Shown: positions 1,555 through 23,602, numbered from the stretch's first letter. The stretch: DNA of 64,000 nt from an uncultured delta proteobacterium (GCA_963796685.1 CAWCMR010000012.1:13587-77586), one strand, 5' to 3'. Numbers and translations are program-made. Notes: generated by a model from the letters alone, not told the origin.

Positions 1555-1649
1555 AACGGGCCCCGGCCGGCCCGGTCGGCCCGATTGGGCTCCTAGCTCG
1601 CGGGTGCTTGCGGCTCGGGCGGCAACGCCGGCTGACCTTCGTAAACAAG

Positions 1650-1880
1650 CCAAATCCTGCGCATCTTCATCGATACCGTGGCGGCCGACTACCGCAAGCG
1701 ACTGGCGGGACGGGACATCTCAGCCGGCAAGCTCCGCCCGGCGCGGACACCTGACGGCGCCGGGTGACGGTGAGGTCACGTCGTGACCGACGAGACCGTG
1801 GGCGACAAAGATCCGAGCCGTCCGCGGTCGCCGCCGCTACAGGTGCTCTGGCAATGCCCGAAGCCCACATGCGCTGCCGC
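1650..1880 (+). pseudogene. Possible strongly decayed IS91-family transposase remnant downstream of copy 1
   Basis: ILRIFIDTVAADYRKR... parallels VLRIFTDTVAPSYGK... after copy 2. A weak ...SPPLQVL... sits where copy 2 has the HUH motif SPHFHVL. Several frames and stops are involved. Confidence 0.25.
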
Positions 1881-2115
1881 TTCACCGATTCGACTGGCTT
1901 TCCGGCACTTCCTGGCGCCGCTCCGGGCGAACGCAGCCTATCGGGACCTGGCGAACCGTCAAGAAAGTCGGGGCAGGGCGGTTAACATCACGGCGCGCCG
2001 CGTATGACATCAAGAATCGGCCATGCCGGTGAGCGCCCGGCCACGATTCCGCCTAAATTATCGTTAGGAAAGCCGGGAGAGTATCATTTCGCCCAGCCAT
2101 GCTGCCCGATCTTCC

Positions 2116-4794
2116 ATGAGCCCCACCAACCACAGCCCTGCACCGACACAGCCCGAGCCAGCGTTCCCCTACGGAGCAAGCTGGGTCAGGGTGGACTTCC
2201 ACCTGCACACGGTGGCCGACAAGGAGTTTCGTTTCTCCGGCGACTCGAACTACTACCATAGCAACTACGTCGATGCGTTGGAGAAGGCAGGGATCCGGCT
2301 GGGGGTGATCACCAACCACAACAAGTTCGAAATCGAGGAGTTCAAGGCGCTGCGTTCAGCGGCCAAGAAGAAGGGGATCGCCCTGTTGCCCGGCGTTGAG
2401 CTGTCGGTAAGCGAGGGGGCCAACGGGATCCATACCCTCGTCGTGTTCGCGGAGGAATGGCTCGCGGAGGGCCGGGACTACATCAATCCGTTCATGACCG
2501 TCGCATTCGAGGGGAAGGTACCGTCACAGTTCGAAAACGAGAATGGTCGGTCGTCGCTCTCACTTCGAGAGACCATTCAGAAGCTGGAAGGCTACAGTCG
2601 GGACTTCTTTCTAGTTTTCGCTCACGTGGAGGACGGGAACGGCCTGTGGGCTGAGCTCGAAGGTGGGCGTCTCCAAGAATTGGGAAACGAAGAGCTCTTT
2701 CACCGTCGCACCTTGGGATTTCAGAAGGTCCGCACGCACGATGGCGCTGGCAAAGGCGCGCCCTGCCGAACCAAGGTTCAAGAATGGTTGAAGGACGCCT
2801 ATCCTGCCGAGGTCGAGGGCAGTGATCCGAAGAGGCTCGAGGAGATCGGTAAGGGCGAGCCCTGCTATCTCAAGCTGGGCGAGCTGTCCTTCGAGGCGGT
2901 CAAGTTTGCTTTGCGCGCCCATCGCGACCGAGTCGCAAAAGAGATCCCGCGTCGATCCACTTCCTGTCTCCGCAGCGCCCATTTCGAAGGCGGCGTCCTC
3001 GATGGTCAGACGATTCGATTCTCGCCGGAGCTGAACGCGCTGATCGGCATTCGCGGCAGCGGCAAGTCGTCGATTCTGGAAACCATCCGCTACGCCCTCG
3101 ACATCCCTCTTCCACAAGGCAGACGGGCAGCGGACGTAGAGTACAAAGACGGTCTCGTGAAGCACGCCCTCGGCAGCGGTGGAAAAGTCACCCTCACTGC
3201 GGTTGACACCTACGGCCAGGAATTCACCGTGTCGCGCATCTTCCGCGAGATGCCCAACGTGTATCTCGCTGGCAAGTTACAGCCCGGCGTATCCATCCGC
3301 GAAACGGTGCTTCGGGGCCCCATCTACTTCGGCCAGAAAGAGCTCGCGGCCGGCGACGCGCAAGATCTGGTCGAAAAGCTCACCGGCGAAAAGCTGGCGC
3401 CTTTGCGGGCGCAGATCGAGGAACAAAGGCAGAAGGTCAAAGACGCGGTAGAGCGCTTCCGCAGGTTGAAGGACTCGGCACAGCAGAAGGCGGAGTACGA
3501 GAGACAGCTCAGCGACGCGGAGTTCCGGCTCAAGAAGTTCAAGGAACACGGCGTGGAGAGCAAGCTCAACCGTCGCCTTGGCTTCCAGAAGGACCAGGGT
3601 CTCCTTGACCGGGTCGGCTCCCGCGTGGTCGCCTTTCAACACGGGTTGGAGAGCTTCGTTGCAGAACACGAAGACGATCTACGCAATGCCGCGTCCTACC
3701 AGTCCACGGAGAACAAAGCCTTCTTCGAACGGTACTTCGACGAATACCGTGGCGTGCTTGCGCAGTTGGACGCCCTGAAGGAAGCCCAGTCGAAACTGGG
3801 CGCTACTTCTGCGAGGCTCGACCAGATGCGGGCCGAGTTCGACGCCACCGCAAGGGGGCTTCAGGACGAGTTTGCCCAGATCGAGCGTGCGTTGGCGGAA
3901 GAGCTGAGGCAGACCGGCTCGGCGGCGATTCAGCCCGACGACTTCCTGCAACAGCAACAGAGGAAGCTCAAGGCCGAGCAAATGATTGAGGCCTTGACCA
4001 AGCAGGAGGCACAACAAGTCTCCAGTCGCGACGCCCTCCTGAAGGAGCTCGATGCTCTGAACGAATTGTGGCTAAAGGAATTCAAGACCATCAAGACCGA
4101 GCTGGACCGCGTGAACGCCAACCACACTGCCTTGCAGGTTGAGTTGAAATTCAAAGGGGACAAGGACGCGGCCATCGCGTTCATGAAGAGCCTCTACAAG
4201 GGCAGCGCCATCCGCGAGACGACCCTAACGTCCGTGATGGAGGACTACGCCGACTTCGGCGCCCTCTTTCGCGACCTTGGCCAGGCCAAGACCAAGGCGG
4301 GTAGCTCTCCAGACCTCTTCGAAGAGAGATTCTTGGAGAACCTCTCCGAGCTCCTCACCTGGCAGGTGCCAAACCGCTTCCGGATCCTCTACCGCAACAA
4401 GGAGCTGCGACACCATTCTCTTGGACAGCGCGCTTCCGCTCTCATTCTCTTTGTGCTGAGCCAGCGAAAGAATGACGTCATCATCATCGACCAGCCTGAG
4501 GACGATCTCGATAACCAGACGATCTACGACGATGTCATCGCGCTGCTGTGCAAGCTCAAGCCGCAGACCCAGTTCATCTTTGCCACCCACAACCCCAACG
4601 TGCCGGTGCTGGGTGACGCAGAACAGGTCCACGCCTGCAGCTACCAAGACGACAAGATCCAGGTGCAAAGCGGTGGTATTGATGCCCAAACCATCCAGGA
4701 AGACATCATCGGGATCATGGAAGGCGGACGCGAGGCTTTCGCCAAGCGCTCCGACATCTACGGCCAATGGAAACAGCAGAGCTCATCGAAATAG
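2116..4794 (+). CDS. PHP-domain phosphoesterase fused to an SMC/Rad50/OLD-like ABC ATPase with a long coiled coil (Ppl/TrlF-like architecture)
   Basis: 892-aa ORF. PHP-type metal motifs: VDFHLHT (2191-2211), ITNHN, GVELS..GIHTLV, FAHVEDG. Walker A is GIRGSGKSS (~3049-3072). An E/K/Q/L-rich predicted coiled coil of ~300 aa spans ~3350-4200. Signature-like SLGQRA, Walker B VIIIDQPEDDLD (4476-4511), H-loop FATHNP. Confidence 0.85.
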   Translation: MSPTNHSPAPTQPEPAFPYGASWVRVDFHLHTVADKEFRFSGDSNYYHSNYVDALEKAGIRLGVITNHNKFEIEEFKALRSAAKKKGIALLPGVELSVSEGANGIHTLVVFAEEWLAEGRDYINPFMTVAFEGKVPSQFENENGRSSLSLRETIQKLEGYSRDFFLVFAHVEDGNGLWAELEGGRLQELGNEELFHRRTLGFQKVRTHDGAGKGAPCRTKVQEWLKDAYPAEVEGSDPKRLEEIGKGEPCYLKLGELSFEAVKFALRAHRDRVAKEIPRRSTSCLRSAHFEGGVLDGQTIRFSPELNALIGIRGSGKSSILETIRYALDIPLPQGRRAADVEYKDGLVKHALGSGGKVTLTAVDTYGQEFTVSRIFREMPNVYLAGKLQPGVSIRETVLRGPIYFGQKELAAGDAQDLVEKLTGEKLAPLRAQIEEQRQKVKDAVERFRRLKDSAQQKAEYERQLSDAEFRLKKFKEHGVESKLNRRLGFQKDQGLLDRVGSRVVAFQHGLESFVAEHEDDLRNAASYQSTENKAFFERYFDEYRGVLAQLDALKEAQSKLGATSARLDQMRAEFDATARGLQDEFAQIERALAEELRQTGSAAIQPDDFLQQQQRKLKAEQMIEALTKQEAQQVSSRDALLKELDALNELWLKEFKTIKTELDRVNANHTALQVELKFKGDKDAAIAFMKSLYKGSAIRETTLTSVMEDYADFGALFRDLGQAKTKAGSSPDLFEERFLENLSELLTWQVPNRFRILYRNKELRHHSLGQRASALILFVLSQRKNDVIIIDQPEDDLDNQTIYDDVIALLCKLKPQTQFIFATHNPNVPVLGDAEQVHACSYQDDKIQVQSGGIDAQTIQEDIIGIMEGGREAFAKRSDIYGQWKQQSSSK

Positions 4795-5930
4795 TCAGCC
4801 GGGGCGAGGATAGTCGACACCAGTTCAAGGCCAATGTGACCAATGAAGTGCAATTGGCACAGGAGATTGTTGCGTTCAGCAATAGTGGCGGTGGGCAAAT
4901 TGTCATCGGCGTTGCCGAAGGCGACCACGCGATCCGTGGGCTCGATGCCGCAGGCATCGGCCGACTCAACCAGCTCGTCTCCAATGCGGCCTCGCAGCAT
5001 GTACGTCCGGCGGTTAATCCCATCACGGAGAATGTTGCCCACCCCCAGGGCACTGTCATGGTAGTGACGATTATGGATGGGGTGGCGAAACCCTACATGG
5101 ACAAGGATGGCGTGATTTGGGTCAAGACCGGCGCCGATAAGCGAAAAGCTACCTCACGTGAAGAAATCCAGCGCATGTTTCAGCAAAGCAGCCTGGTTCA
5201 CGCCGACGAAGTCCCTGTCACCGGAACTGGCGTAGGCGACGTGGATCTGGCCTACTTCGAGGCGTTCTTCAATCAGCAACCGTTCGATGCGCCTCTTGTC
5301 AACCAGCCGGTCCCCTTGCCACGGCTGCTGACCAACATGAACCTCATGCGCGGCGAATTCCTCAACCTCGCAGCGGTTCTGCTCTTCGCTCGTGCTCCGC
5401 AATACCGATTGCCGGCATTCATCGCGAAGGCCATTGCGTATCCTGGTGTAGAGGCCGATGAGGCAGCGTATCTGGATTCGCGCGACATCGTGGGAAGGCT
5501 GGCCGATGTGTTTCAGCAGGCGTTGGGCTTTCTGAGCGCAAACACAGGAACCCATCAAGGCGACCGGGGTGTCAACTCTACCGGAGAACCCGAGATCCCG
5601 AGGATTGTATGGGAAGAGCTCGTCGCCAATGCGCTCGTTCATCGCGACTATTTCATCACCGCGCCTGTTCGCATCTTCGTATTCGCCGATCGGGTCGAGA
5701 TCATCAGTCCTGGCCATCTTCCGAACAATCTCACCGTGGAAAACATCTTGAAGGGCAACTCGAACATCTGGAATCCGGTCCTGGCGTCCTTCGCCGCGAA
5801 GCTCCTGCCGTACCGAGGATTGGGCAACGGCATCCTGAGAGCAAAGAAGGCCTATGCCGAAATCGAGTTCACCGATGATCGTGAAGCCAACCTGTTCAAG
5901 GTGACCGTGGCGCGACCAGGGCGCGGTTAG
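4767..5930 (+). CDS. AlbA_2 (Schlafen-type) domain protein with a C-terminal HATPase_c_4-like domain (often annotated as a RecG-like putative DNA-binding/ATP-binding protein)
   Basis: 387-aa ORF overlapping the upstream gene by 28 nt. The N-terminus carries SRHQFKANV...IVAFSNSGGGQIVIGV. The C-terminus carries ANALVHRDY...VRIFVFADRVEIISPGHLPN. Confidence 0.85.
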   Translation: METAELIEIVSRGEDSRHQFKANVTNEVQLAQEIVAFSNSGGGQIVIGVAEGDHAIRGLDAAGIGRLNQLVSNAASQHVRPAVNPITENVAHPQGTVMVVTIMDGVAKPYMDKDGVIWVKTGADKRKATSREEIQRMFQQSSLVHADEVPVTGTGVGDVDLAYFEAFFNQQPFDAPLVNQPVPLPRLLTNMNLMRGEFLNLAAVLLFARAPQYRLPAFIAKAIAYPGVEADEAAYLDSRDIVGRLADVFQQALGFLSANTGTHQGDRGVNSTGEPEIPRIVWEELVANALVHRDYFITAPVRIFVFADRVEIISPGHLPNNLTVENILKGNSNIWNPVLASFAAKLLPYRGLGNGILRAKKAYAEIEFTDDREANLFKVTVARPGRG

Positions 5931-12668: not shown

Positions 12669-12844
12669 TTGGGAAACTGCTGGGCCAAGTCCTGCGCATC
12701 TTCACCGATACCGTCGCGCCCAGCTATGGCAAGGCCTGGCAGATCGGGGCATTGCCGACGGCACGTGCGGCGCTGTCACGTCATCCAGCGTGCCAACAGC
12801 GACCTGCGTCTCTCCCCGCATTTCCACGTTCTCCACCTCGATGG
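12669..12844 (+). pseudogene. IS91-family (HUH/Y2 rolling-circle) transposase fragment, 5'-truncated, internally frameshifted and cut by an insertion
   Basis: VLRIFTDTVAPSYGK..., then in other frames GIADGTCGAVT and VIQRANSDLRLSPHFHVLHLDG. The HUH motif is HFH. This matches the QR..SDL.LNPH.H.L.LDG.Y block I recall for IS91-like transposases. Confidence 0.55.
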
Positions 12845-12866
12845 CCTATGCTGAACTCAGCATAGG
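12845..12866. repeat. Palindrome cctatgctga-ac-tcagcatagg built from the outer RIT terminal motif. It extends to 14-bp arms (atggcctatgctga / tcagcataggccat) if the intron is removed at 14942.
   Basis: Read directly: 10-bp perfect arms with a 2-nt spacer. The intron 5' GTGCG follows immediately. Confidence 0.85.
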
Positions 12867-13250
12867 GTGCGTCCGGCATGGACGCAGAACAAGAGGTGAA
12901 GCCATGAAATAGCCAAGTCCTCTGGGGACCCTGACGGAGGGAACCTCCCACCTACGAGACAAGGGCGCCGGTCTGGAGCACCAGGCCAGACGGGCCGCAA
13001 GGCCCGTCTCCCGCGAGGAGGTGTCTGGTGGAAGTCTATGGTGCAGCGCCGAACCGAACGAAAGTGAAGCGCCGTAAGGCGTGGGTACCGCTGGGCAAGC
13101 TGGCCTTCGGCGGCAAAGCCCAATATTCGTCGGGCGGCCCGCGTAGTGGCGACGGAGTCGGTGCGAAGTTCTGCGTTCTTACCCGGAGAGACCTCTTGGC
13201 CTCCGCGGCGAGGAATCGCAAGCGGAATTCATCGAGAACGAAAGGACGAG

Positions 13251-14811
13251 ATGAAGAAGGGACAAGAGGAGTCGGATGGTCGCGTAATACCGGAAGGCCG
13301 GCGAAAGCCGGTTCCAACCGCCAGAAGGCGGGGAGGGAAGGCGACCACGGCCAGCAAAGAGGCAAGGCAGCTCGGACTGTTTCCCGAGACAGCCGACAAC
13401 CCGAAAGGGACCACCGCCCAAGCGGATCCGGGCCAACCCGTGCCTGCGCGGAGCGAGGTGCCGAAGTCGGGGAACGAGGAAGAGAGGACCTTGCCGCCCA
13501 TGACGATGGAGGAGGTAGCGAGCGAAGGAAACCTGAAAAGAGCGTTCGAGCAAGTGAAGGCCAACAAAGGCGCACCTGGACCGGACCGGCAAAGCGTGGG
13601 GGAAGTGGCGAAGGGGTTGGGGACGCTGATACCGGCGCTGTCGCGGTCGCTGCTCGACGGGACATACCGAGTCGGAGACATCCGGCGGGTATGGATACCG
13701 AAGAGCGGTGGCGGGCGGCGGGGCCTTGGCATACCGAACGTGGTGGACCGCGTGGTTCAGCAGGCCGTGCACCAAGTGCTCGGTCCGCATTATGAGCCGA
13801 CGTTTCACCCGTCGAGCCACGGTTTCCGACCTGGGCGCAGCCTGTCACACGGCCATCGCCGAGGCCAAGCAGTATCTGGAGGAAGGGTACGAATGGGTGG
13901 TCGACCTCGACCTGGAAAAGTTCTTTGACTGGGTCCACTGGCAACGGCTGGTGGCGCGGCTAGAACAGAGGGTTAAGGACCGGCGGCTCATCGAGCTCAT
14001 CTGGCAGATGCTGAAAGCCAAGGTGGTGATGCCCGACGGAGTGGTGGTGGCGACGGAAGAAGGAGTGCCACAAGGTGGTCCGCTTTCGCCGTTACTGAGC
14101 AATATCGTGCTGGACGAGCTCGACCGCGAGCTTGCCCAACGCGGTCACCGCTTCGTGCGCTATGCGGACGACTGCAACATCTACGTCGGAAGCGAGCGCT
14201 CGGGTCAGCGTGTGATGGCCAGCGTGGTCAAGTTCATCGAAGGCCGGATGCGGTTGAAGGTGAACTTGGCCAAGAGCGCGGTGGCCCGACCGGAAGAGCG
14301 GCACTTTCTGGGATTCCGGCTGCGGCGCGAGCCGCTGACGGGGGAAGCGGAGGTGCTGCTGTCGGCGCGGAGCAAAAGCCGCATTGACGAGAAGGTCCGA
14401 GAGCTGACGCCGCGAAACCTTGGGCAGTCCCTCAAGGGCTGCATCAAACAGGTCAACGCGTATTTGCTCGGATGGATCGGCTTCTTCTGTATCTGCACGG
14501 CCGCGGAAGAGCGGACGCTGCAGGCACTCGACGCACACATCAGGCGGCGGCTGCGAGCGATAGTGCTACGGCACTGGAAACGCAGACGCTTCATCGCACG
14601 ACACCTCATCAGCCTGGGGGTGAGACCGAAAACCGCGTGGCAAGGGGTCTACAAGGGGCATCGCTCCTGGTGGGCGCTGAGCCACACATCGGTAGTTGAA
14701 CGAGGACTGCGCAACGCATATTTTGCCGAACGCGGGCTTGTCAGCCTGGCCGAGCGGTGGAAGGACCATCACGCCTTGGACTTCATGGACCCGGCCCTGG
14801 AGCCAGGATAG
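13251..14811 (+). pseudogene. Group II intron-encoded reverse transcriptase/maturase, frameshifted at ~13842, with no C-terminal HNH endonuclease domain visible
   Basis: ORFs 13146..13928 and 13708..14811 join as ...HGFRPGRS|CHTAIAEAKQYL... with one extra c at 13842. RT motifs: LKRAFEQVKANKGAPGPD, RRVWIPKSGGGRRGLGIP, RYADDCNIYV. The protein ends soon after the maturase (X) region. Confidence 0.8.
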
Positions 14812-14870
14812 CTGCGGGCAGCAATGCCGGCGCTGGACTACGGGTCGCTCCCGAACGCCAGCGTCCCGAA

Positions 14871-14942
14871 GAGCCGGATGTGAGGCCCACAAGTCCGGTT
14901 CTGTGAGAGCTGGGGGAGGGTAACCTCCCCTGGCTACTCGAC
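14871..14942 (+). ncRNA. Group II intron domains V and VI (catalytic hairpin and branch-site helix)
   Basis: Domain V is gagccggatgtgaggcccacaagtccggttc, with an AGC triad at its 5' base. Domain VI pairs gagagc-tgggggagg with cctcccctg-gct(A)ctc around a GTAA loop, leaving A14936 bulged. Confidence 0.6.
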
Positions 14943-14946
14943 CCAT

Positions 14947-14976
14947 CCTATGCTGAGTTTCGGATTATGCTGAGTT
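14947..14976. repeat. Outer RIT left terminal inverted repeat (two tandem tatgctgag motifs)
   Basis: Perfect 30/30 reverse-complement match to 21790-21819. A third, inverted motif copy (tcagcatag) lies at 15045-15053. Confidence 0.9.
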
Positions 14977-15096
14977 GCTCGTGACCCGCACGCGATCTGT
15001 GCTGGATTTCCCGGTGGGTCGCTCGAATTGGTGGGTTCTGTTTGTCAGCATAGTCTTGGGCGCTCTTGATGGCCTGTTGGCCAGGAAGGAGCACTC

Positions 15097-16197
15097 ATGC
15101 TGGAGCAGTTTTTCACCTATGACTATGTGCTGGCTCGCCTTCGCGGCGGAGCGCTGGGCGGGATCCTTGACGATGTCGCTGCGCATTTGGAGAAGCGCGG
15201 TCATACACCGAGAGTCGGGCAATCGTACCTGTGCGCAGCCGGCCACTTCTCCCATTGGTTAGATCTCAAAAGGATCAGCCCGAACGCGGTGGGGGAAGTT
15301 ACCCTAGCGTCGTTCCTGGAAGGGCACCTCCCGCGATGCAAGTGTCGGGTGCCACACGGGTTGCGTTGTCACATGCGGGCGGCACTGGACCACGTGTTGG
15401 CCGTGCTGCGCGCACAGGGCGTAGCCACCCCCCCACAGCGGCCAGTGCAGACGCCTGTGGACCGTATGCTTGAGTCCTTCAGGACCTACCGACAAAACAC
15501 GTGCGGAGTGACCGATGCCACCAGCCAGGGCAACGTCTTGCACGTTCGTCGGTTTCTGGTTTCCCTCTACGGGACTGGCGAGATCGATCTGCGCCGGCTT
15601 GGGCCCAAGGAATTGATTGGCTTCGTGTCGGAGCAGACCAGAAAGTACTCGCCGGGCGCGGCGGGGCTTGTCCGAACGGCGTTGCGTAGCTTCCTTCGAT
15701 TTGCGCAAGTCGCTGGCCTGTGCGAAGGGACACTGGCAGCCGCTGTTCCCAAGGTGGCGCATTGGCGCCGAGCGAATCTTCCCCGAGGTCTGTCCGACGA
15801 GCAACTCGCCGCCTTGCTTGCGTCGTTCGACTTGACCGCGGCGACTGGACGGCGGGACTACGCGATGGTTTCGTGCATGGCTGGGCTTGGCTTGCGGGCC
15901 GGCGAAGTCGCTGCGCTGTTGCTCGATGACGTGGATTGGCGGGCGGGCACCTTGCGAGTCGGTCGCGGAAAGGAGCGGCGGGCCAGTGTCCTGCCGCTGC
16001 CCGCACCGGTGGGGCGCGCACTGGTTGACTACCTACGCCGCGGCCGGCCGCACACCGACGATCGTCACATGTTCGTCCGGCACCAGCTGCCGGTGGGCCA
16101 GCCGCTCAGCTCCTCGGCTGTGACAGCCGCTGTCCGACTGGCCTTCACGCGTGCGCGGCTGACCTTTCCATTCAAAGGCGCCCACGTCTTGCGCCAT
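15097..16197 (+). pseudogene. ritA: Outer RIT tyrosine recombinase A, 5' portion (interrupted after the H-x-L-R-H box)
   Basis: ORF 15097..16290 reads normally up to ...FKGAHVLRH. It then runs into the inner element IR (YAESPVMPSE...). The remainder resumes at 19625. Confidence 0.8.
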
Positions 16198-16224
16198 TAT
16201 GCCGAGTCCCCGGTTATGCCGAGT
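16196..16224. repeat. Inner RIT left terminal inverted repeat (two tandem tatgccgag motifs)
   Basis: Perfect 29/29 reverse-complement match to 19564-19592. A third, inverted copy (ctcggcataa) lies at 16281-16290. Confidence 0.9.
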
Positions 16225-16337
16225 GAGCCTCTCGATCTGGCGCGATCAACGGCGATTTCCTCGGCAGGTGGGCTTGCGGACTCGGCATAACCAGGGCGTC
16301 GTCGTCTCCTTCTGGCCACCGGGCCGAAGGAGGACAC

Positions 16338-17571
16338 ATGCCCCGGATGCACGACGATTTTCTGAAATGGCAACGACTGCGCGCTGGCCCCTTGGGTCCG
16401 CACCTCGACACGTTTGCAAAAACGCTCACTGAGAGGGGATATCCGCCTGCGACCGTGGCGTGCAAGGTGCGCCTGGCAGCGAAGTTCGGAGACTGGCTTG
16501 GACGGCGAGGACTGACTGTCGAGGAGGTCGACGAGCAGGCCGTAGCCCGCTTTGTCCGGCGCCATCCCTGCGTACCCCGGCGTGGAGACGCAGCGACATT
16601 GCGTGATGTCCTTGAACGGGTCCGTTCCGCCGGTCTTGCGCCGCCAGCGCCCGTCAAGGTCGATGACACTGCGATCGGGCGGATCGTGAGTGAGTTCGGC
16701 CGGTATCTGTTGGTGGACCGCGGCTTGTCCGTCTTGACTCAGATCAACTACCTGCCCATTGTCCGCTCGTTCCTCCTGGAGCGGTTCGACGGCAGGAGGG
16801 TGCAGCCTCAATGCGCTCGGGCCCCAGGATGCGGGTGAATTTCTGGTCCGGCATGTTCACGTGGTCCATCCAAAGAGAGCCGCTCTGATGGTTACCGCCC
16901 TACGCGGTTTTCTGCGGTGGGTGCACGTGAAAAGAGCCCTGGCTGCAGACCTCGCGGCCACGGTTCCCGCGGTCGCCTGCTGGCGTTTCTCAACGGTGCC
17001 GAAATCGATCCCCGCGCGCGACGTCGAGCATCTGTTGCGCCGCTGTCGACGAAGAAACTCCGAAGCCGGCCTGCGCGACCACGCGGTCATTATGCTGATG
17101 GCACGACTCGGCCTCCGCGGTGGAGAAGTCGTGAGCCTGGATCTGGCAGACTTCGACTGGGCCGCAGGCACGTTGCGGGTCCACGGCAAGGGTGGGCGGC
17201 AAGACGTCCTCCCGTTGCCGTCCGATGTCGGCAAGGCCGTCGCCCGGTACTTGCGCCATGGCCGCCCAGCATGCTCGTGCCGGAGAGTCTTCGTCCGCGC
17301 GAGAGCGCCGCGGCGTGGCTTCGCAACCACGGGCGCGGTCTGTACGATCGTGAAGCGAGCGCTGGAACGCGCCGAACTGGACCCACCACGCAAAGGCGGG
17401 CACATCCTCCGCCATGCGCTCGCCTGCTCGATGCTGCGCCGAGGAGCGACCCTTACCGAGATCGGGCAGGTCCTGCGACACCGTCGAGCCGATACGACGA
17501 CGATTTACGCGAAGGTAGACTTCCATGCGCTACGTGCGCTCGCTCCTGCATGGCCAGGAGGCAGGCGATGA
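16338..17571 (+). pseudogene. ritA: Inner RIT tyrosine recombinase A with a single-nt frameshift near 16800
   Basis: ORFs 16338..16838 and 16759..17571 join as ...FLLERFDGRRV|SLNALGPQDAGEFLV... if one nt is removed in gtgcagcctc. The C-terminal catalytic boxes are intact (GGHILRHALA...LRHRRADTTTIYAKV). Confidence 0.75.
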
Positions 17572-18503
17572 ATACGCTCCGCGAGGGCGCCGAGGAGTAC
17601 CTGTCGCTGCGACGCCGTCTGGGCTACAAGCTCGACCGCTCGGGGCGGTTACTGCTGCAATTTGTGTCCTTCATGGAGCAGCGGAAGGCTCCGTTCATTA
17701 CCAACGATCTGGTCGTCGAATGGGCCGTGCGGCCGACCAAGACCCAGCCCGTGTATTGGGCCAGCCGGCTATCGGCGGTCCGGCTCTTTGCACAGTATTG
17801 GCGCGCCACCGATTCTCGCACCGAGGTCCCTGCCCTCGGGCTCCTCCGGGCTCGGTATCAACGCAAGCGCCCCTACATATACAGCGAGGACGAGATCATG
17901 CGGCTGATGGATGCGGCGGCACGGCTCCCATCGCAGACGGGGCTTCGTGCTCAGACCTACGTCACGCTGCTTGGCCTGCTCACCGTGGCCGGTCTGAGGA
18001 TCAGCGAGGCGATCGCTCTCGACCGCGAGGATGTTGACCTCGAAGGCGGGATCCTGACAATCCGCCGGACCAAATTCGGGAAGACCCGGCTGGTGCCCAT
18101 TCATCGATCGACGAAACTGGCACTTTGCCGGTACGCACGCTTCCGTGATCGCGTTCATCCAACACCACGGACGAGAAGCTTCTTCGTCGGCGAGACAGGT
18201 GCCCGGGTGGTGAAGAACACTGCAGAAGACACCTTCGTCCATCTGTCTCGCCGGATTGGGCTTCGTGGTCCTGAAGGTCGTCACGGTCATGGGCCGCGTC
18301 TGCATGACCTTCGGCATCGGTGGGCCGTGGACACCATGCTGCGCTGGTACCGGGCAGGAGTCGATGTGGAGCGGCACCTGCCGCAGCCGTCGACCTACCT
18401 CGGGCACACCCACGTCAGTGATACCTACTGGTACCTGACCGCAGTGCCCGAGTTGATGAGCCTCGCCATGTCGCTCCTGGAGCGAGATAGGACGTCGCCG
18501 TGA
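17568..18503 (+). CDS. ritB: Inner RIT tyrosine recombinase B
   Basis: ATG 17568 overlaps the ritA stop (ATGA). MNTLREGAEEYLSLRRRLGYKL...GLRISEAIAL...LHDLRHRWAV...YLGHTHVSDTYWYL. Confidence 0.8.
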   Translation: MNTLREGAEEYLSLRRRLGYKLDRSGRLLLQFVSFMEQRKAPFITNDLVVEWAVRPTKTQPVYWASRLSAVRLFAQYWRATDSRTEVPALGLLRARYQRKRPYIYSEDEIMRLMDAAARLPSQTGLRAQTYVTLLGLLTVAGLRISEAIALDREDVDLEGGILTIRRTKFGKTRLVPIHRSTKLALCRYARFRDRVHPTPRTRSFFVGETGARVVKNTAEDTFVHLSRRIGLRGPEGRHGHGPRLHDLRHRWAVDTMLRWYRAGVDVERHLPQPSTYLGHTHVSDTYWYLTAVPELMSLAMSLLERDRTSP

Positions 18504-19498
18504 AGCCCTCCCACGGATTCCCTGCGCTGCTTGAGTCCTTCTTCGTGGACCATCTCCTGCGCCAGCGTCAAGCAAGTCCACATACAGTGCAGAGCTATCG
18601 CGATACCTTCCGCCTACTGCTGGCCTTCACGAAGCAGCACCTGAAGAAGACTCCCTCGGCGCTCGCACTGGACGACCTCGACACACCAACGATTGGCGCG
18701 TTCCTGGATCACATCGAGAAGGACCGCGGCAACTCTCCGCGCACCCGCAACGCCAGGCTCGCGGCGATCCACTCCTTCTTCCAGTACGCCGCCCTCCAGG
18801 CGCCCGACTACAGCGCCGTCATCCAGAGGGTTCTGGCCATGCAGGGCAAGAAATACGATCGCGAGCTCGTCCACTTCCTGTCCCGGCCCGAGATCGACGC
18901 ACTCCTCGAAGCTCCCGACAAGGCCACATGGTCCGGCCGGCGCGATCGCGCCATGCTCCTTGTGGCCGTTCAGACCGGGCTGCGCGTATCCGAGCTGGCC
19001 GCGCTCAACGTGCAGGACGTGGTCCTCGGACCCGGCGCGTACGTTCACTGCCTCGGCAAGGGCCGCAAGGAACGTTGCACGCCCCTGCGCAAAGAGGCCG
19101 TCTCGGTCCTCCGGGCGTGGCTGCGCGAACGTGCCGCCACCGGGACCGAGCCCCTCTTCCCCAACGCGCGGGGCGGTTTCCTCAGTCGCGACGGCGTCGA
19201 GTACCTGCTCGCGAAACACGTGCAGGTCGCTCGGATCCGCTGCCCCTCGCTGAGGGAGAAGCATGTGTCTCCGCACGTGCTGCGCCACTCGACGGCAATG
19301 GATCTCCTTCAAGCCGGTGTCGACAGCTCGGTGATCGCGCTCTGGCTTGGTCACGAGTCGGTCGAGACCACGCAGATCTACTTCGCTGCCAGTCTCCAGC
19401 TCAAAGAGCGAGCGCTGGCCAAGACAGCACCCTCGGCAGCGCGACCTGCTCGCTTCCACCCCGACGACAAGCTCCTCGCCTTCCTACAGAGCCTTTGA
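18500..19498 (+). CDS. ritC: Inner RIT tyrosine recombinase C
   Basis: GTG 18500 overlaps the ritB stop (GTGA). ...SPHTVQSYRDTFRLLL...GLRVSELAAL...HVLRHSTAMDLL...LGHESVETTQIYFAA. Confidence 0.8.
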   Translation: MKPSHGFPALLESFFVDHLLRQRQASPHTVQSYRDTFRLLLAFTKQHLKKTPSALALDDLDTPTIGAFLDHIEKDRGNSPRTRNARLAAIHSFFQYAALQAPDYSAVIQRVLAMQGKKYDRELVHFLSRPEIDALLEAPDKATWSGRRDRAMLLVAVQTGLRVSELAALNVQDVVLGPGAYVHCLGKGRKERCTPLRKEAVSVLRAWLRERAATGTEPLFPNARGGFLSRDGVEYLLAKHVQVARIRCPSLREKHVSPHVLRHSTAMDLLQAGVDSSVIALWLGHESVETTQIYFAASLQLKERALAKTAPSAARPARFHPDDKLLAFLQSL

Positions 19499-19563
19499 TT
19501 ATGCCGAGTCGCGCACGTAAGCGAACCCGAAGTCCCCGTGATTCCTGCATGCAATGGCGGGCA

Positions 19564-19592
19564 ACTCGGCATAACCGGGGACTCGGCATAAT
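19564..19592. repeat. Inner RIT right terminal inverted repeat
   Basis: Exact reverse complement of 16196-16224. A third motif copy (ttatgccgag) at 19499-19508 follows the ritC stop directly. Confidence 0.9.
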
Positions 19593-19622
19593 GCCGCTTA
19601 TGCCGAGCACGGCATAAGCGGC
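19593..19622. repeat. Perfect 13-bp-stem palindrome (gccgcttatgccg-agca-cggcataagcggc) abutting the inner RIT right IR
   Basis: Read directly. It contains the element motif tatgccg and its complement. Together with the IR tip it also forms ctcggcataa-tgccgc-ttatgccgag. Confidence 0.85.
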
Positions 19623-19624
19623 AC

Positions 19625-19783
19625 ACGGCTGCGACGCGCATGGTTCGCGCGGGAGCCAGTCTCAAGCAGGTAGCGGATGTCCTTCGCCACCGCAGTCTCG
19701 AAACGACTCAGATCTACGCCAAGCTCGACCTGGCCACGCTGGCTGAGGTCGCGCTGCCTTGGCCCGAGGTGGATCATGAGTAG
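19625..19783 (+). pseudogene. ritA: Outer RIT tyrosine recombinase A, 3' portion (catalytic Tyr region)
   Basis: TAATRMVRAGASLKQVADVLRHRSLETTQIYAKLDLATLAEVALPWPEVDHE* continues ...HVLRH from 16197. Confidence 0.75.
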
Positions 19784-20732
19784 CTCACCAACGATGGTGA
19801 ATCTGGCGCAGGAGTATCTCACGCTTCGTCGCCAACTTGGTTACGCCCTTGCTACCCCCGGTCAGTCGCTACTGGCATTCGCTCGTTACGCCGACAGCAT
19901 CAGACACCAAGGTCCAGTCACCATCGACCTCGCCGTGCGATGGGCAAAACTACCTCAAAAAGCCAAGCCGTGCTGGTGGGCCCGACGGCTACAAATCGTC
20001 CGCGGGTTTGCTCAACACCGAAGCCTATTCGAGCCAGGCACGGAGATCCCTCCTGCGGATCTACTCGGTCCCTATTTCCGTCGTAGCACGCCGCACATCT
20101 ACTCGAATGCGGAGATCTGCGCTCTGCTTCGTGCGGCCAAGGACCTCGGACCTGCCGGTGGGCTGCGCTGCCACAGCTACGTGACACTGTTTGGTTTGCT
20201 CATCAGCAGCGGCCTGCGGATCTCGGAGGCGTTGCACCTGCAACGCGACGAGGTGGATTTGCGAAGCGGCGTGCTCACCGTGGCGCGCAGCAAGTTCCGC
20301 AAATCGCGGCTGGTCCCGCTACACCCGTCGACGACGCACGCCCTCGCGAAGTACGCCGAACGCCGGAATCGCTACCATCCAGAAGCAACAGCTCGCACCT
20401 TCTTCATCAACGAGCGTGGCGCGCCCATGGGCTATAGCGGTGTGATCGGCACCTTCACGGACCTGCGTTGCCAGCTCGGTTGGACGAAGAACCGGGAAGG
20501 GCGACGACCCCGGCTGCACGACATGCGGCACACGATGGCCGTGCGCACCCTTTTGCGCTGGTGCCAGCAAGGTGCAGACGTGGACCAAAAGATCCTCGCC
20601 CTATGCACCTACCTGGGCCACGTTGAAGTCACCGATACCTACTGGTACTTGACAGCAGTCCCCGAGCTCATGGCGCTCACGGCTGCACGTTTCCAAGCCT
20701 ACTCGCGCCATCGTTCGAGGAGGGGCCGATGA
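19776..20732 (+). CDS. ritB: Outer RIT tyrosine recombinase B
   Basis: ATG 19776 overlaps the ritA 3' end. MSSSPTMVNLAQEYLTLRRQLGYAL...GLRISEALHL...LHDMRHTMAV...YLGHVEVTDTYWYL. Confidence 0.8.
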   Translation: MSSSPTMVNLAQEYLTLRRQLGYALATPGQSLLAFARYADSIRHQGPVTIDLAVRWAKLPQKAKPCWWARRLQIVRGFAQHRSLFEPGTEIPPADLLGPYFRRSTPHIYSNAEICALLRAAKDLGPAGGLRCHSYVTLFGLLISSGLRISEALHLQRDEVDLRSGVLTVARSKFRKSRLVPLHPSTTHALAKYAERRNRYHPEATARTFFINERGAPMGYSGVIGTFTDLRCQLGWTKNREGRRPRLHDMRHTMAVRTLLRWCQQGADVDQKILALCTYLGHVEVTDTYWYLTAVPELMALTAARFQAYSRHRSRRGR

Positions 20733-21736
20733 AGGCCAACCCTCTGCCCCCAAGCTTCGCGGCGCTGCTGCAGGACTTCTTCTGCAAGCGCATGATCGCC
20801 GAACGCAATTTGAGCGACCAAACCGTGGCGAGCTATCGCGACACATTTCGGCTTCTATTGAAGTATGCCGAACAGCGGATGAGGAAGCCTCCGGAGGCTC
20901 TGACCCTGGCCGATCTGGACGCGCCGGTCATCCTCGGCTTTCCCGACCAGCTTCAGAAGGAGCGTGGTAACTCCGCGCGCACGCGCAACCTCCGCCTGGT
21001 GGCCGTGCGCTCCTTTCTTCGTTACGCCTCCTACCGTGCCCCAGCGGCACTCCCGACGATCCAGCGGGTCCTGGCCATTCCGATGAAACGCTTCGACCGA
21101 CCCCTACTCGGATTCTTGTCGCACGAACAGATGCAGGCCGTCCTCGATGCACCGGATCGAACAACGTGGAGCGGTCAGCGCGATTACGTCATGTTCTCCA
21201 CCTTCTACAACACCGGCGCTCGCGTCTCCGAGATCATTGGCCTGCGCGTGAATGATGTCGAGTTCGACCGCACTGCTGCAGTCCACATTCGGGGCAAGGG
21301 CCGCAAGCAGAGAGTGACCCCGCTCTGGCGGGGCACGGCTCGGCTGCTGCGCGACTGGCTGGTCCGAGCGCATCGAGATGGCGATGCGCCGGTCTTCTCC
21401 AATCGTGCCGGTCGTGCTCTGTCGCGATCAGGTGTTGAGCAACGACTGCGTGTAGCTGTCGCCGTCGCCCAGAAACGCTGCCCTTCGCTGCGGGAACTAT
21501 CGGTATCTCCTCACACACTCAGACACACCACGGCCATGCATCTGCTCCAATCCGGGGTGGATCTGACCGTCATAGCCTTGTGGCTGGGCCACGAGAGCCC
21601 AGAGACAACCCACCATTACATCGAAGCCGATCTCACCATGAAGGAGCGTGCCCTTGCTTCACTTCAGGAGCCTCGTGGTCGATCCCTTCGCTATCGCGCC
21701 AGCGATCGACTCCTGGCCTTCCTTGATGGCCTCTAA
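20729..21736 (+). CDS. ritC: Outer RIT tyrosine recombinase C
   Basis: ATGA overlap with ritB. ...SDQTVASYRDTFRLLL...GARVSEIIGL...HTLRHTTAMHLL...LGHESPETTHHYIEA. A motif copy ctatgctgag at 21737-21746 follows the stop directly. Confidence 0.8.
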   Translation: MKANPLPPSFAALLQDFFCKRMIAERNLSDQTVASYRDTFRLLLKYAEQRMRKPPEALTLADLDAPVILGFPDQLQKERGNSARTRNLRLVAVRSFLRYASYRAPAALPTIQRVLAIPMKRFDRPLLGFLSHEQMQAVLDAPDRTTWSGQRDYVMFSTFYNTGARVSEIIGLRVNDVEFDRTAAVHIRGKGRKQRVTPLWRGTARLLRDWLVRAHRDGDAPVFSNRAGRALSRSGVEQRLRVAVAVAQKRCPSLRELSVSPHTLRHTTAMHLLQSGVDLTVIALWLGHESPETTHHYIEADLTMKERALASLQEPRGRSLRYRASDRLLAFLDGL

Positions 21737-21789
21737 CTATGCTGAGTGTTTTCGCTGTACCAGCTGCGTTTGCAGGGGCATTGATGGCG

Positions 21790-21819
21790 AACTCAGCATA
21801 ATCCGAAACTCAGCATAGG
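21790..21819. repeat. Outer RIT right terminal inverted repeat
   Basis: Exact reverse complement of 14947-14976. Confidence 0.9.
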
Positions 21820-21964
21820 ATGGAGCTTACGCCCCTGGGCGCGACGGCGGTTCGCCCAGGACCAGCCCAAGTCGGCTTGTACCCACGAGGTGGCGAACAT
21901 CAAGGAGATGGTGTTGGCGCCCGAATACCGCCACGTGAACCGTTCTGAGTCTTCTGGCATATAG
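21820..21964 (+). pseudogene. Continuation of the interrupted IS91-family transposase remnant (decayed)
   Basis: Joining 12836-12844 (ctcgatgg) to 21824 onward gives the in-frame reading ...HFHVLHLDG|AYAPGRDGGSP.... Downstream frames decay (RFAQDQPKSACTHEVANIKEMV...). Confidence 0.4.
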
Positions 21965-21990
21965 TCCATTTTACTCATGAGTAAAATGGA
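21965..21990. promoter_or_regulatory. Perfect 26-bp AT-rich palindrome (tccattttactcatgagtaaaatgga) 15 nt upstream of the AAA ATPase start. Candidate operator or element end.
   Basis: Read directly. The 26-mer equals its own reverse complement and is ~31% GC in a ~68% GC context. Confidence 0.5.
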
Positions 21991-22004
21991 GTACTCTCCA
22001 AGCC

Positions 22005-23144
22005 ATGCGGAAACCAAGATCCCTCAAGCCGGCGGTGGAGAAAGCCCTGGCCGGCGGCAAGATGGTCTTCATCGGTGGCCCCAGGCAAGTGGGCAAGACA
22101 ACCCTCGCGCTCTCGCTGCTCGGGCCCCGGGCCACGGAGAGACACCCGGCCTACATGAACTGGGACGATCCGCGTGCGGCGGAACGCCTGCGCCGGGCCG
22201 AGTTGCCGCCCGATCAGCCGCTGCTCGTCTGCGACGAGGTGCACAAGTACGCACGCTGGCGCAACTTGCTCAAGGGCATCTACGACACCGAGAAGTCCTT
22301 CCGTCACATCGTGGTCACCGGCTCCGCGCGGCTCGACTACTACCGCAAGGGCGGCGACTCGCTCGCCAACCGCTACCGCTATTTCCGCCTGCATCCGTTC
22401 TCCCTGCGCGAGCTCCACCCCGAGCCGACGGCCGCACACCTCGACGACCTGCTGCGCTTCGGCGGCTTCCCCGAGCCACTCTTCGGCCGCGACGCGGACG
22501 AGCATCGCATCTGGCAGCGCGACCGACTGGCGCGTGTCGTGCGCGAGGATCTGCGCGATCTGGAACGGGTGCGCGAGGTGAGCTTGGTCGAGCACCTGGT
22601 CGACCTTCTACCTGAGCGCGTGGGCTCGCCGCTCTCGGTGGCCAACCTGCGGCAGGATCTGGAGGTCGATCACAAAACCGCGGAACGCTGGCTGACGATC
22701 CTCGAGCATATGTACGTCTGCTTCCGCCTTGCTCCGTTCGGGCCGCCCCGCGTCCGTGCAGTGAAGAAGGAGAAGAAGCTCTACCTCTGGGACTGGTCGG
22801 CCGTGGCCGATGCCGGCGCGCGTTTCCAGAACCTGGTGGCGTGCCAGCTGCTCAAGTACTGCCACGGGCTGGAGGACACCAAGGGCGTACGCATGGAGCT
22901 GCGCTTCCTGCGTGACACGGATCGGCGCGAGGTCGACTTCGTGGTCCTGCGCGACGGTCGACCGGAATTCGCGGTGGAGTGCAAGAGCGGCGAACGCGCC
23001 ATCGGCCCCTCGCTGGGCTACTTCGCCGAACGTGCCCCCATCCCGCGCTTCTTCCAGGTCCATCGCGGCGACCGCCACTACCAGCGTGGCAGGATCACCG
23101 TGCTGCCCTTCACTCGCTTCTGCACCGATCTCGACATGCCCTGA
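22005..23144 (+). CDS. AAA-family ATPase of the AAA_14/DUF4143 type
   Basis: 379 aa. Walker A is FIGGPRQVGKTTL and Walker B is PLLVCDEVHKY. The C-terminal half resembles a DUF4143/restriction-endonuclease-like fold (EVDFVVLRDGRPEFAVECKSGE). Confidence 0.8.
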   Translation: MRKPRSLKPAVEKALAGGKMVFIGGPRQVGKTTLALSLLGPRATERHPAYMNWDDPRAAERLRRAELPPDQPLLVCDEVHKYARWRNLLKGIYDTEKSFRHIVVTGSARLDYYRKGGDSLANRYRYFRLHPFSLRELHPEPTAAHLDDLLRFGGFPEPLFGRDADEHRIWQRDRLARVVREDLRDLERVREVSLVEHLVDLLPERVGSPLSVANLRQDLEVDHKTAERWLTILEHMYVCFRLAPFGPPRVRAVKKEKKLYLWDWSAVADAGARFQNLVACQLLKYCHGLEDTKGVRMELRFLRDTDRREVDFVVLRDGRPEFAVECKSGERAIGPSLGYFAERAPIPRFFQVHRGDRHYQRGRITVLPFTRFCTDLDMP

Positions 23145-23602
23145 GCAGCGCGGTCGCCAGCAATCGCTCCGCGGGAGGCCGTGGCGGAGGGCGATGCGTG
23201 TCGATTGCGCGATCAGCTTACCCAACAGGACATCGAGGCCATGGTCGAGCGCGCGAGTAAACGCATCCTTGGCTTCCTCCAACAGCGCGGGGTCATCAAT
23301 CTCGCACCGTGACCGCCATCGCACGGCACCGAGGAGGACTTACTTGCCGTTCAATCCTACTGGAGACAGGTGCTCGTCGCGCCAGCGTCAATCACGTCCT
23401 GCGTGCATAGGTACTCCTCCACAGGCGGGGGCGCGAACGAAGAGGCCCACGCCTGGGAAGTGCCCCGGTATTCGGTCACGCCCAGATTCTGGAGGGACTC
23501 GATGTAGTGCCCCATTTTCACCACCCAGTTGCCCGTCGGCATGTTGGCCAATCGCCTCGATGTCGCCGTTCGAGGCGCTCGGCTCCAGACTGGACGACAC
23601 CC

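Follow-up and report, generated by a model that had tools for sequence, protein, structure and literature searches.

How did two sets of three recombinase genes come to lie one inside the other, with the outer set interrupted at codons for its own catalytic residues? The question is raised by a 64,000-nt stretch of DNA from an uncultured delta proteobacterium (GCA_963796685.1 CAWCMR010000012.1:13587-77586; here called the window, with positions counted from its start), which contains two recombinase-in-trio (RIT) elements. Each carries the genes ritA, ritB and ritC, and is bounded by inverted repeats (IRs). An inner RIT is inserted in the ritA gene of a second, outer RIT, and comparison with loci from other genomes that carry RIT copies or ends (L001-L151) points to a shared target preference. 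We consider it likely that the explanation developed here is correct as a whole, that is, a nested stack of insertions, targeting of the recombinase motif box II, and exchange through a palindromic junction of element ends. Genes, IRs, hairpins and the other mapped elements are given on the + strand.

Six same-strand open reading frames (ORFs) within 15097-21736 each match the profile PF00589 (E 1e-17 to 1e-33), in agreement with a preliminary description of the locus that had reported six tyrosine recombinase genes in one orientation. The outer trio comprises a ritA in two parts (5′ part 15097..16197, ending ...GAHVLRH; 3′ part 19625..19783, TAATRMVRAG...IYAKL...), a ritB (19776..20732) that overlaps ritA by 8 nt, and a ritC (20729..21736) that overlaps ritB by 4 nt. 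The inner trio comprises ritA (16338..17571), broken by a 1-nt insertion near 16805, ritB (17568..18503) and ritC (18500..19498), with an overlap of 4 nt at each gene boundary. Identity between the trios is 37.5% (A/A), 48% (B/B) and 52% (C/C) for genes of the same letter and 25-34% between letters. The trios are thus homologous gene for gene yet diverged, as had been proposed, and this same-letter divergence, together with discrete copies elsewhere, rules out a tandem duplication.

NCBIfam and Pfam contain no Rit-specific model, and the proteins match the generic XerC/XerD/Phage_integrase models; subfamily membership was therefore tested by phylogeny. A neighbour-joining tree (Poisson distance, 500 bootstraps) was built from the window trios, the trio on plasmid 2 of Aromatoleum EbN1, which has been named as a RIT host (PMC3414803), five other trios and two unrelated integrases. 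The RitA, RitB and RitC clades were each recovered in 500/500 bootstraps, with the six window proteins falling in the order A-B-C, A-B-C that the preliminary description had led us to expect. Identity to the EbN1 trio was 42-61% for the same letter and 18-29% across letters. The Rit proteins resemble Xer-type recombinases in the NCBIfam comparison. The box I Arg, the box II H-x-x-R-H and the Tyr could be read from the translations of all three proteins of each trio, box II being HVLRH, HDMRH and HTLRH in outer A, B and C and HILRH, HDLRH and HVLRH in inner A, B and C; an (I/H/W)Y motif follows box II in all six. Two sequential core-binding domains are a hallmark of RitA (Smyshlyaev 2021, PMC8138268), and a duplicated core-binding domain was detected by aligning RitA residues 17-110 with 118-209 (hhalign probability 90.9%, E 1.1e-6, 111-sequence alignment). 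RitC has been described with an extra conserved C-terminal helix (PMC8138268); in both window RitC sequences about 35 aa follow the catalytic Tyr, with D-x-LL-x-FL-x-x-L at the C-terminus, and EbN1 RitC is alike in this, a likeness at the level of sequence. From IR to IR the inner unit measures 3,393 bp, and the outer unit 3,443 bp in the intact copies L002 and L003. The gene overlaps (8, 4, 4 and 4 nt), the 34-bp IRs and the length of about 3.4 kb agree with the published description of RITs. By all these comparisons the two window elements are ordinary members of the RIT family.

The inserted unit as a whole extends over 16198..19624 (3,427 bp); its boundaries can also be placed a few nucleotides leftward, because 5-6 nt (CGSCA) are common to element and target. 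It splits the outer ritA exactly after the Arg-His codons of the H-x-L-R-H box (catalytic box II). When 15097-16197 is joined to 19625-19783, an open frame of 419 codons is restored (...GAHVLRH/TAATRMVRAG..., a slash marking the junction here and below), so the split and the resumption of the frame are as first reported. Intact homologues of 418-419 aa are 90-93% identical to the rejoined RitA over 99-100% of the length. Empty sites were found in seven relatives with unbroken outer-type RITs (L002, L005, L006, L144, L145, L147 and L148; 82-97% nucleotide identity), which align to window positions 14943-16196 and then directly to 19618-21823. The intact sequence reads GTCTTACGCCAC/ACGGCTGCG, its right side beginning ACGGCT, and GTGCTGCGCCAC/ACGGCGGCG in L002-L004. 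The inner unit aligns from position 1 to 3427 with L011, L016, L021 and L023, which lie in other contexts (86.6-88.4% identity). Discrete IR-bounded units therefore occur elsewhere, the outer type uninterrupted at seven loci and the inner type end to end at others, and the natural before-and-after target junction anticipated from the nested pair proved to exist and to be informative, with seven empty sites to set against the filled site in the window. Because intact outer-type homologues are colinear over the breakpoint and the inner unit recurs end to end elsewhere, the nesting can be taken as real: the locus is, by sequence comparison, a RIT nested in a second, different RIT, and neither a duplication nor a rearrangement.

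Two other origins of this arrangement were weighed. Two separate RITs might have formed a chimeric array by recombination, either homologous or site-specific at box II, instead of by insertion. Rearranged arrays do exist: an EbN1 RIT has the N-terminal part of a ritB on its left and the C-terminal part of a ritC on its right, and L012, L063 and L073 each lie between two recombinase N-terminal parts. In the window, by contrast, the two flanks belong to one ritA (94-95% identical to L005 on each side, with 1040/1101 nt or 94.5% in the 5′ part and 151/159 nt or 95% in the 3′ part), the frame is restored and both ends of the inserted unit are complete, which makes this origin highly improbable. 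It is still harder to credit that the assembly wrongly connected two RITs, of the same or of different genomes, at similar repeats, even though the source may be a metagenome bin and RITs often assemble as separate contigs of about 3.4 kb. The joins lie outside the common repeats, at unique ritA sequence that abuts the inner IRs at both ends and restores a single ORF; the two elements share only about 65-69% identity, over short stretches; and the same junction anatomy recurs in dozens of independent assemblies. Insertion of the inner RIT thus remains the preferred account. Within the window both trios look unable to act, because the outer ritA is split and the inner ritA is frameshifted. The 1-nt frameshift had been noted before and corresponds to an additional base near 16805 (GCAGCCTC), where three intact homologues read GCA-CCTC.

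The ends of the two elements share one architecture. The outer left IR (14943..14976) consists of CCATCC, TATGCTGAGT, 7 nt and a second TATGCTGAGT, and the inner left IR (16191..16224) of GCGCCAT, TATGCCGAGT, 7 nt and a second TATGCCGAGT. The right IRs lie at 21790..21823 (outer; the last 5 nt, GATGG at 21819-21823, are the right crossover copy) and 19564..19597 (inner). The outer IRs are 34 nt long and 100% complementary, so they are perfect, as first described, but exceed the 30 bp then given; the inner IRs, described as perfect and 29 bp long, are present but measure 34 nt with one mismatch (33/34). At each end two direct terminal copies of a 10-nt motif, 7 nt apart, are accompanied by one inverted copy 50-80 nt further inward (outer left 15043-15052, degenerate; outer right 21738-21747; inner left 16280-16289; inner right 19500-19509). 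The motif matches 16 times in the window, against 3.4 expected, a number reached in 0/100 shuffles, and almost all 16 copies are at the four element ends. As stated earlier, the outer (TATGCTGAGT) and inner (TATGCCGAGT) motifs are one base apart. The terminal 6-7 nt that match the target also differ, being CCATCC in the outer and GCGSCAT in the inner element.

To what extent the position of the inner RIT follows a rule was judged from other RIT ends. A pattern scan based on the IRs only, with one genome per species, yielded at least 119 stretches and at least 147 RIT ends, spanning Acidobacteriota, Actinomycetota, Desulfobacterota, Pseudomonadota, Verrucomicrobiota, Planctomycetota, Firmicutes and others; with the earlier loci, 184 ends were available among the matches listed. 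The 45 nt adjoining each end were clustered at 80% identity, the independence of clusters being an assumption from sequence divergence. Close relatives of the inner RIT (L009-L023) lie in the gene of a small integrase that has an IS91-family transposase downstream, with left junctions ...H-M-L-R-H/TATGCCGAGT or ...H-T-M-R-H/, at the same codon as in the window ritA. Among the matches listed, 36 flank clusters end ...[LMIFV]-[RK]-H right at the IR, nearly all as H-x-L-R-H, and about 34 distinct 5′ flanks are left after removal of two hairpin artefacts; on the 3′ side, 21 distinct flanks read RH[ST]FATH.... Counted by ends among those 184, 40 + 6 hairpin-less ends directly follow (H-x-L-)R-H codons, and 33 hairpin ends precede the reverse complement of RH[ST]FATH.... 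The junction position was identical in every distinct box II flank among these matches, with none elsewhere in those genes. In 36/39 distinct ends among the matches listed, base -1 (position three of the His codon) varies together with the base before the element's inner motif copy. Base -1 therefore belongs to the element, which leaves CGNCA as the shared segment. The comparison thus shows RITs with a YTATGCYGAGT end motif and a CGNCA terminal spacer recurring at the Arg-His box II codons of many unrelated tyrosine recombinase genes. Because RitA, RitB and RitC all carry the same box, RITs are targets for one another. On this evidence the nesting is not a chance event and reflects a family-wide target preference.

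A different view of the same flanks is that of survivorship, in which RITs insert at any 5-6-bp match and persist only in dispensable mobile-element genes. Some ends do lie in ordinary genes or intergenic DNA, and roughly half of all ends, among the matches listed, are outside recombinase genes. One off-target copy, L002, is flanked by part of a HATPase_c/response-regulator (histidine-kinase-like) gene with a short match only, and L006 and L058 are further off-target copies. We nevertheless think survivorship improbable as the explanation, since about 34 different recombinase genes among the matches listed are struck at one identical codon, CGNCA sites are far commoner in dispensable DNA than in box II, and several other RIT lineages lie at or beside conserved motifs of a mobile-element gene family. 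Targeting of box II is the reading retained here.

Further cases of one RIT within another were found. The interrupted gene is ritB-like in L034, L136 and L095, where a ritA-like gene immediately precedes it or a ritC-like gene follows, and ritA-like in L112 and L119. EbN1 plasmid 2 (L001, 98844-115312) carries a complete RIT whose end motif differs; ...LHDLRH/ of a ritB-like gene precedes this RIT, and RH/TTAMHLLQAGVD of a ritC-like gene comes next. On pHG1 of Cupriavidus necator (L151, 23056-44367) one RIT lies between HSLRH/ and a hairpin with RH/TCALSVLQ..., a second RIT has a hairpin with RH/TAAMELLQAGVD, and a ritC-like gene ends ...VTPHVLRH/ at a third IR. Such RIT gene arrays have been called 'complex combinations' or a 'maze' (PMC3414803, PMC2864759); read in this way, the pHG1 and EbN1 arrays appear to resolve into RITs at Arg-His codons of other recombinase or RIT genes.

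One RIT in the pHG1 and EbN1 arrays is further cut by ISAe1. L085 was rejected as a RIT-in-RIT: here an inner-type RIT is cut near the start of ritB by a 3.5-kb insert (2282-5767) that encodes ORFs of 493 aa and 272 aa (P-loop) and not a trio. This insert may be a transposase and ATPase pair, and the alignments on its two sides overlap by 8 nt, which suggests a target duplication. A recombinase 5′ part reading inward flanks RITs on both sides in L012, L063 and L073, and in L015 at the sole available, hairpin-less end; the flanks of L073 are near-identical inverted copies. These four loci are probably products of inversion between oppositely oriented copies.

The outer RIT itself was found to begin well outside the IR at which it had been thought to start. 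The preliminary description placed the left end at 14947, near the IR boundary at 14943, but the element starts at 12845, about 2.1 kb further left, and includes a 22-nt hairpin and a 2,076-bp group II intron. The hairpin (12845..12866, CCTATGCTGA-AC-TCAGCATAGG) is formed by the end motif in two inverted copies, with a DNA fold of -9.9 kcal/mol (z -4.4 against shuffled sequences). In L002, L005, L144, L145, L147 and L148 the same hairpin is joined directly to the left IR (...CAGCATAGG/CCRTCCTATGCTGA), with different flanks outside it. Because relatives join the hairpin straight to the IR, the hairpin belongs to the RIT and the intron is a later insertion within it. The intron (12867..14942, 5′ GTGCG) lies between the hairpin and the left IR, and its intron-free state, ...CAGCATAGG/CCGTCCTATGCTGA, is present in L147, which matches the window on both sides of the intron. 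It matches Rfam RF02001 at 13007-13177 (79.7 bits) and RF00029 at 14869-14942 (46.6 bits), both above the gathering scores, and carries a frameshifted reverse transcriptase/maturase ORF (13146-14811; RVT_1 3e-29, GIIM 1e-15). Insertion directly after a stem-loop is typical of class C group II introns. The possibility that the outer IR continues across the intron was ruled out, since what lies upstream of the intron is the hairpin.

The target of the outer RIT is the relic of an IS91-family (Y2/HUH) transposase gene. Its 5′ part (12671..12844) ends ...VIQRANSDLRLSPHFHVLHLDG, the last five nucleotides (12840-12844) being the left crossover copy GATGG that adjoins the hairpin, and its continuation (21824..21858, DG/AYAPGRDGGSP) is homologous to the right flanks of L145 and L150; across the element the relic reads ...SPHFHVLHLDG/AYAPGRDGG.... 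Alone, the window relic matches weakly (Pfam Y2_Tnp E=0.012; best tblastn matches IS91-like), and it was identified through L147, L145 and L150. The segment 12671-12844 is 84% identical to the L147 flank; the N-terminal flank of L147 joined to the C-terminal flank of L145 matches Y2_Tnp across the junction (E=1.4e-21, covering 1-179 of the 183 profile positions); L145 and L150 have right flanks that continue as a Y2_Tnp ORF; and the L005 flank matches Zn_Tnp_IS91 at 9e-8. When the window flanks were searched by tblastn with the IS91 transposases of L016 and L009, which belong to a different IS91 subgroup, no match was found. Flanks of the form H[FL]HV..DG/hairpin and DG/[AV]YAPGRDGG occur in the same frame and place in the window and L147, L005, L144, L148, L145 and L150. 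From this agreement the outer RIT sits in the IS91-family relic at the Asp-Gly codons that follow the HUH motif, the usual target of its lineage. An outer-type RIT first entered the transposase gene at these codons, and two later insertions then entered the outer RIT, the group II intron between hairpin and left IR and the inner-type RIT in ritA.

Several other features of the relic were noted. A 1.36-kb segment (21859-23216) interrupts it and contains an AAA_14/DUF4143 ATPase gene (22005-23144) and a 16-nt palindrome (21962-21993); L145 and L150 pass from the equivalent of 21858 to that of 23217 with only about 22 nt between, and the segment may be yet another insertion. Other pieces of the same IS91-family transposase frame lie at 1752-1815 and 23217-23304 (L150 positions 258-322 and 170-257), 21 kb apart and out of order, suggesting that a larger region was rearranged or that the relic is present twice. 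A perfect 13-nt inverted repeat (CCGTCGCGCCCAG / CTGGGCGCGACGG, at 12711-12723 and 21836-21848) has one copy in each part of the relic; the copies would have been about 130 nt apart before the RIT insertion, and the repeat may be due to chance.

The junctions of the inner RIT indicate how such insertions may arise. On the 3′ side of the target the IR motif is followed by 8 nt, the palindrome TATGCCGAG/CTCGGCATA, an A and a second copy of the Arg-His codons (CGGCAC, 19619-19624). The terminal hairpin (19592..19623) has a 14-bp stem, TGCCGCTTATGCCG-AGCA-CGGCATAAGCGGCA, and a fold of -19.6 kcal/mol (z -6.7 against shuffled sequences); the same structure is present in L009-L023. L011 has a perfect duplication of GCGCCAT. 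In the window the intact target reads CGCCAC and the internal spacer of the element CGGCAT, and the junctions read CGCCA/T on the left and CGGCA/C on the right, as expected of the product of a conservative exchange with a 5-6-bp overlap that includes one mismatch, one strand being replicated. When the ends were joined in silico, the junctions were palindromic over 84/88 positions for the inner element, 88/88 for L011 and 86/88 for the outer element, and contained two mirror-image core sites. L031, L049 and L080 carry the hairpin on the A side; the window, L011, L016-L023, L095 and L130 carry it on the C side. Among inner-type elements the hairpin always adjoins the 3′ part of the target, whatever the direction of the rit genes, and in the outer lineage always the 5′ part. 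It is thus tied to neither the ritA nor the ritC side, as a junction model predicts.

We infer the following joined-end mechanism. The Rit recombinases would bind the 10-11-bp motif copies, of which each end has two direct terminal and one inverted subterminal, with two more in the hairpin. Joining of the ends would create a near-perfect 88-nt palindrome (...ACTCGGCATAATGSCGCTTATGCCGAGCTCGGCATAAGCGSCAYTATGCCGAGT... for inner-type copies) with two mirror core sites, each made of inverted arms of about 10 bp around a 6-8-bp spacer. Conservative strand exchange would then occur with a target that shares 5-6 bp with the spacer (CGNCA in the inner lineage, GAYGG in the outer), and the choice of which mirror core pairs with the polar target would set which integrated end keeps the hairpin.

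The same nesting and target rule could also be produced by other chemistry, namely by a linear RIT with covalently closed hairpin ends or by a hairpin or cruciform intermediate, as in telomere resolution; the terminal palindrome would then be a footprint of hairpin opening or replication and not part of a circle junction. In a mobilome study RIT DNA was enriched after exonuclease treatment, yet no circular junction reads were found, and hairpin intermediates were proposed from palindromic ends of 47-51 bp (PMC5737581). Such protection without circular junctions keeps this model alive, as do the strength of the hairpin stems and the form of the extra end segment, which is an exact inverted copy of 'terminal arm + spacer' (in L011, a perfect palindrome of 34 nt). 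At both junctions, target and element bases form a reciprocal mosaic that fits an ordinary conservative exchange, hairpin-less copies with simple 5-6-bp repeats exist (L054), and the Rit proteins look Xer-type and not like resolvases. On balance we regard the hairpin route as unlikely and favour joined ends.

Besides the mobilome data, several points weigh against the combined explanation of nesting, box II targeting and joined-end exchange. A 5-6-bp match alone cannot account for such consistent insertion in recombinase genes, so that extra recognition or a survival bias after insertion must contribute; coding constraint masks any signal at the DNA level, and in the target consensus constraint and DNA recognition are inseparable. 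That the flank clusters represent separate events is assumed from divergence and not proven. Copies without a hairpin occur (L054, L077 and L129), L016-type junctions have target-type sequence on both sides, and L012, L063 and L073, with recombinase N-terminal parts on both sides, require secondary rearrangement. The window is a single assembly, in which no excised form of its elements was observed and the frameshifts could be sequencing errors.

Dozens of Rit protein homologues are encoded on contigs of 3.38-3.52 kb, about one RIT length, and L003 starts and stops within IRs. In assembly graphs a repeat present in many copies is expected to yield such contigs, though an extrachromosomal form would leave them as well.

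Preliminary assignments place RIT ends in other mobile-element genes as well: in reverse transcriptase genes of group II introns at an N-terminal motif (NLYRIW/) and at YADD (L076, L121 and L094), in an IS21-type transposase at ...Q[IV]DWG/ (L079 and L120), where we take DWG to be a motif of that transposase, in the N-terminal part of the relaxase domain of TrwC relaxase genes (L059, L072 and L086), at the C-terminus of a TrbI gene (L098 and L122), and at a second IS91 motif of RYYG type (L028, L042, L107 and L133). In both lineages analysed here the 5-7-bp terminal spacer matches target codons. The RIT family may, in a reading that we favour only slightly, consist of homing hyperparasites of other mobile elements, with lineage-specific spacers matching target codons and a palindromic double core site of about 88 nt, RIT-in-RIT being self-targeting. 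As to whether one window trio could mobilise the other, a question raised by the preliminary description, C and T are both found at motif position 6 within single elements (L027, L032, L060, L090 and L106), and the one-base difference between the window elements is for this reason probably no specificity barrier. Elements with TATGCTGAGT are also able to sit in box II (L146 and L149). The terminal spacer is a better candidate for specificity than the motif base. If the broader pattern is true, RITs are specialised to inactivate recombinases, transposases, relaxases and reverse transcriptases that belong to competing mobile DNA, and the recombinase-gene 'mazes' on classic plasmids are explained.

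Inteins, homing endonuclease genes and group II introns home into the DNA of conserved catalytic motifs, where a target is assured in many hosts. They splice out and leave the host gene functional, whereas RIT insertion destroys its target gene, and RIT targets, unlike theirs, are mobile-element genes (hyperparasitism). Tn916 and CTnDOT, large conjugative elements with a single integrase and Xis, tolerate overlap mismatches ('coupling sequences') and need few matching bases; they share with the proposed RIT mechanism an exchange by tyrosine recombinase, but lack palindromic double core sites. Telomere resolvases (ResT/TelK) and integrative mobile elements exploiting Xer/dif (IMEXs) apply tyrosine recombinase chemistry to palindromic sites, and provide a mechanistic analogy only for the hairpin route, the window having no evidence for hairpin telomeres or use of dif. 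Multi-recombinase tyrosine transposons with TnpC, Srap or GinD resemble RITs in site-selective integration and in a 6-7 bp junction sequence carried from donor to target (PMC10214605). They have cargo and a fourth small protein and lack terminal IRs of the RIT kind, whereas RITs encode three Xer-like recombinases and nothing else; nor are their targets recombinase catalytic boxes. Within the family, the RITs of Cupriavidus metallidurans CH34, C. necator pHG1 and Aromatoleum EbN1 (Van Houdt 2009/2012; Ricker 2013) have the ritA-ritB-ritC order and 4-8-bp overlaps seen here, and those on pHG1 and in EbN1 follow the same Arg-His rule as the inner lineage. Published RITs, like those in the window, are about 3.4 kb long, have 34-bp IRs with an overlapping palindrome at one end, and occur inside other mobile-element genes (PMC3414803, PMC2864759, PMC10214605); they differ in belonging to other phyla and in their end motif (TATRTGCCCTTCC..CTATRTC against YTATGCYGAGT). 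A comparison of the whole region with plasmids gave no close copy, the matches reaching only about 65%.

RITs occur widely among bacterial phyla. No one has yet reproduced their transposition, and for both target specificity and mode of movement the table of a 2023 review gives 'not tested' (PMC10214605). Neither the box II insertion rule nor RIT nesting was found stated in the RIT literature compared; Ricker et al. 2013 was outside that comparison, so an earlier description is possible. The nested pair and its empty-site homologues supply exact boundaries, including the terminal hairpin that IR-based definitions overlook, and a reciprocal donor/target junction with a 5-6-bp crossover and a predicted 88-nt attachment site. 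The box II Arg-His codons are the first concrete natural target indicated for RITs, and with this target defined, a 40-bp synthetic box II target (GCCCACGTCTTACGCCACACGGCTGCGACG) and an intact trio should be enough for a first RIT integration assay.

Gene-less miniature elements with full RIT ends (two terminal motifs and one subterminal motif at each end) were also observed, in L039 (1282-1608), L056 (54-380) and L107 (5693-6019), each of 327 bp, and in L141 (2572-3015, 444 bp). The outside hairpin is visible in L039, L056 and L107, and a short flank repeat in L039 and L056. They look like non-autonomous RIT derivatives comparable to miniature inverted-repeat transposable elements (MITEs).

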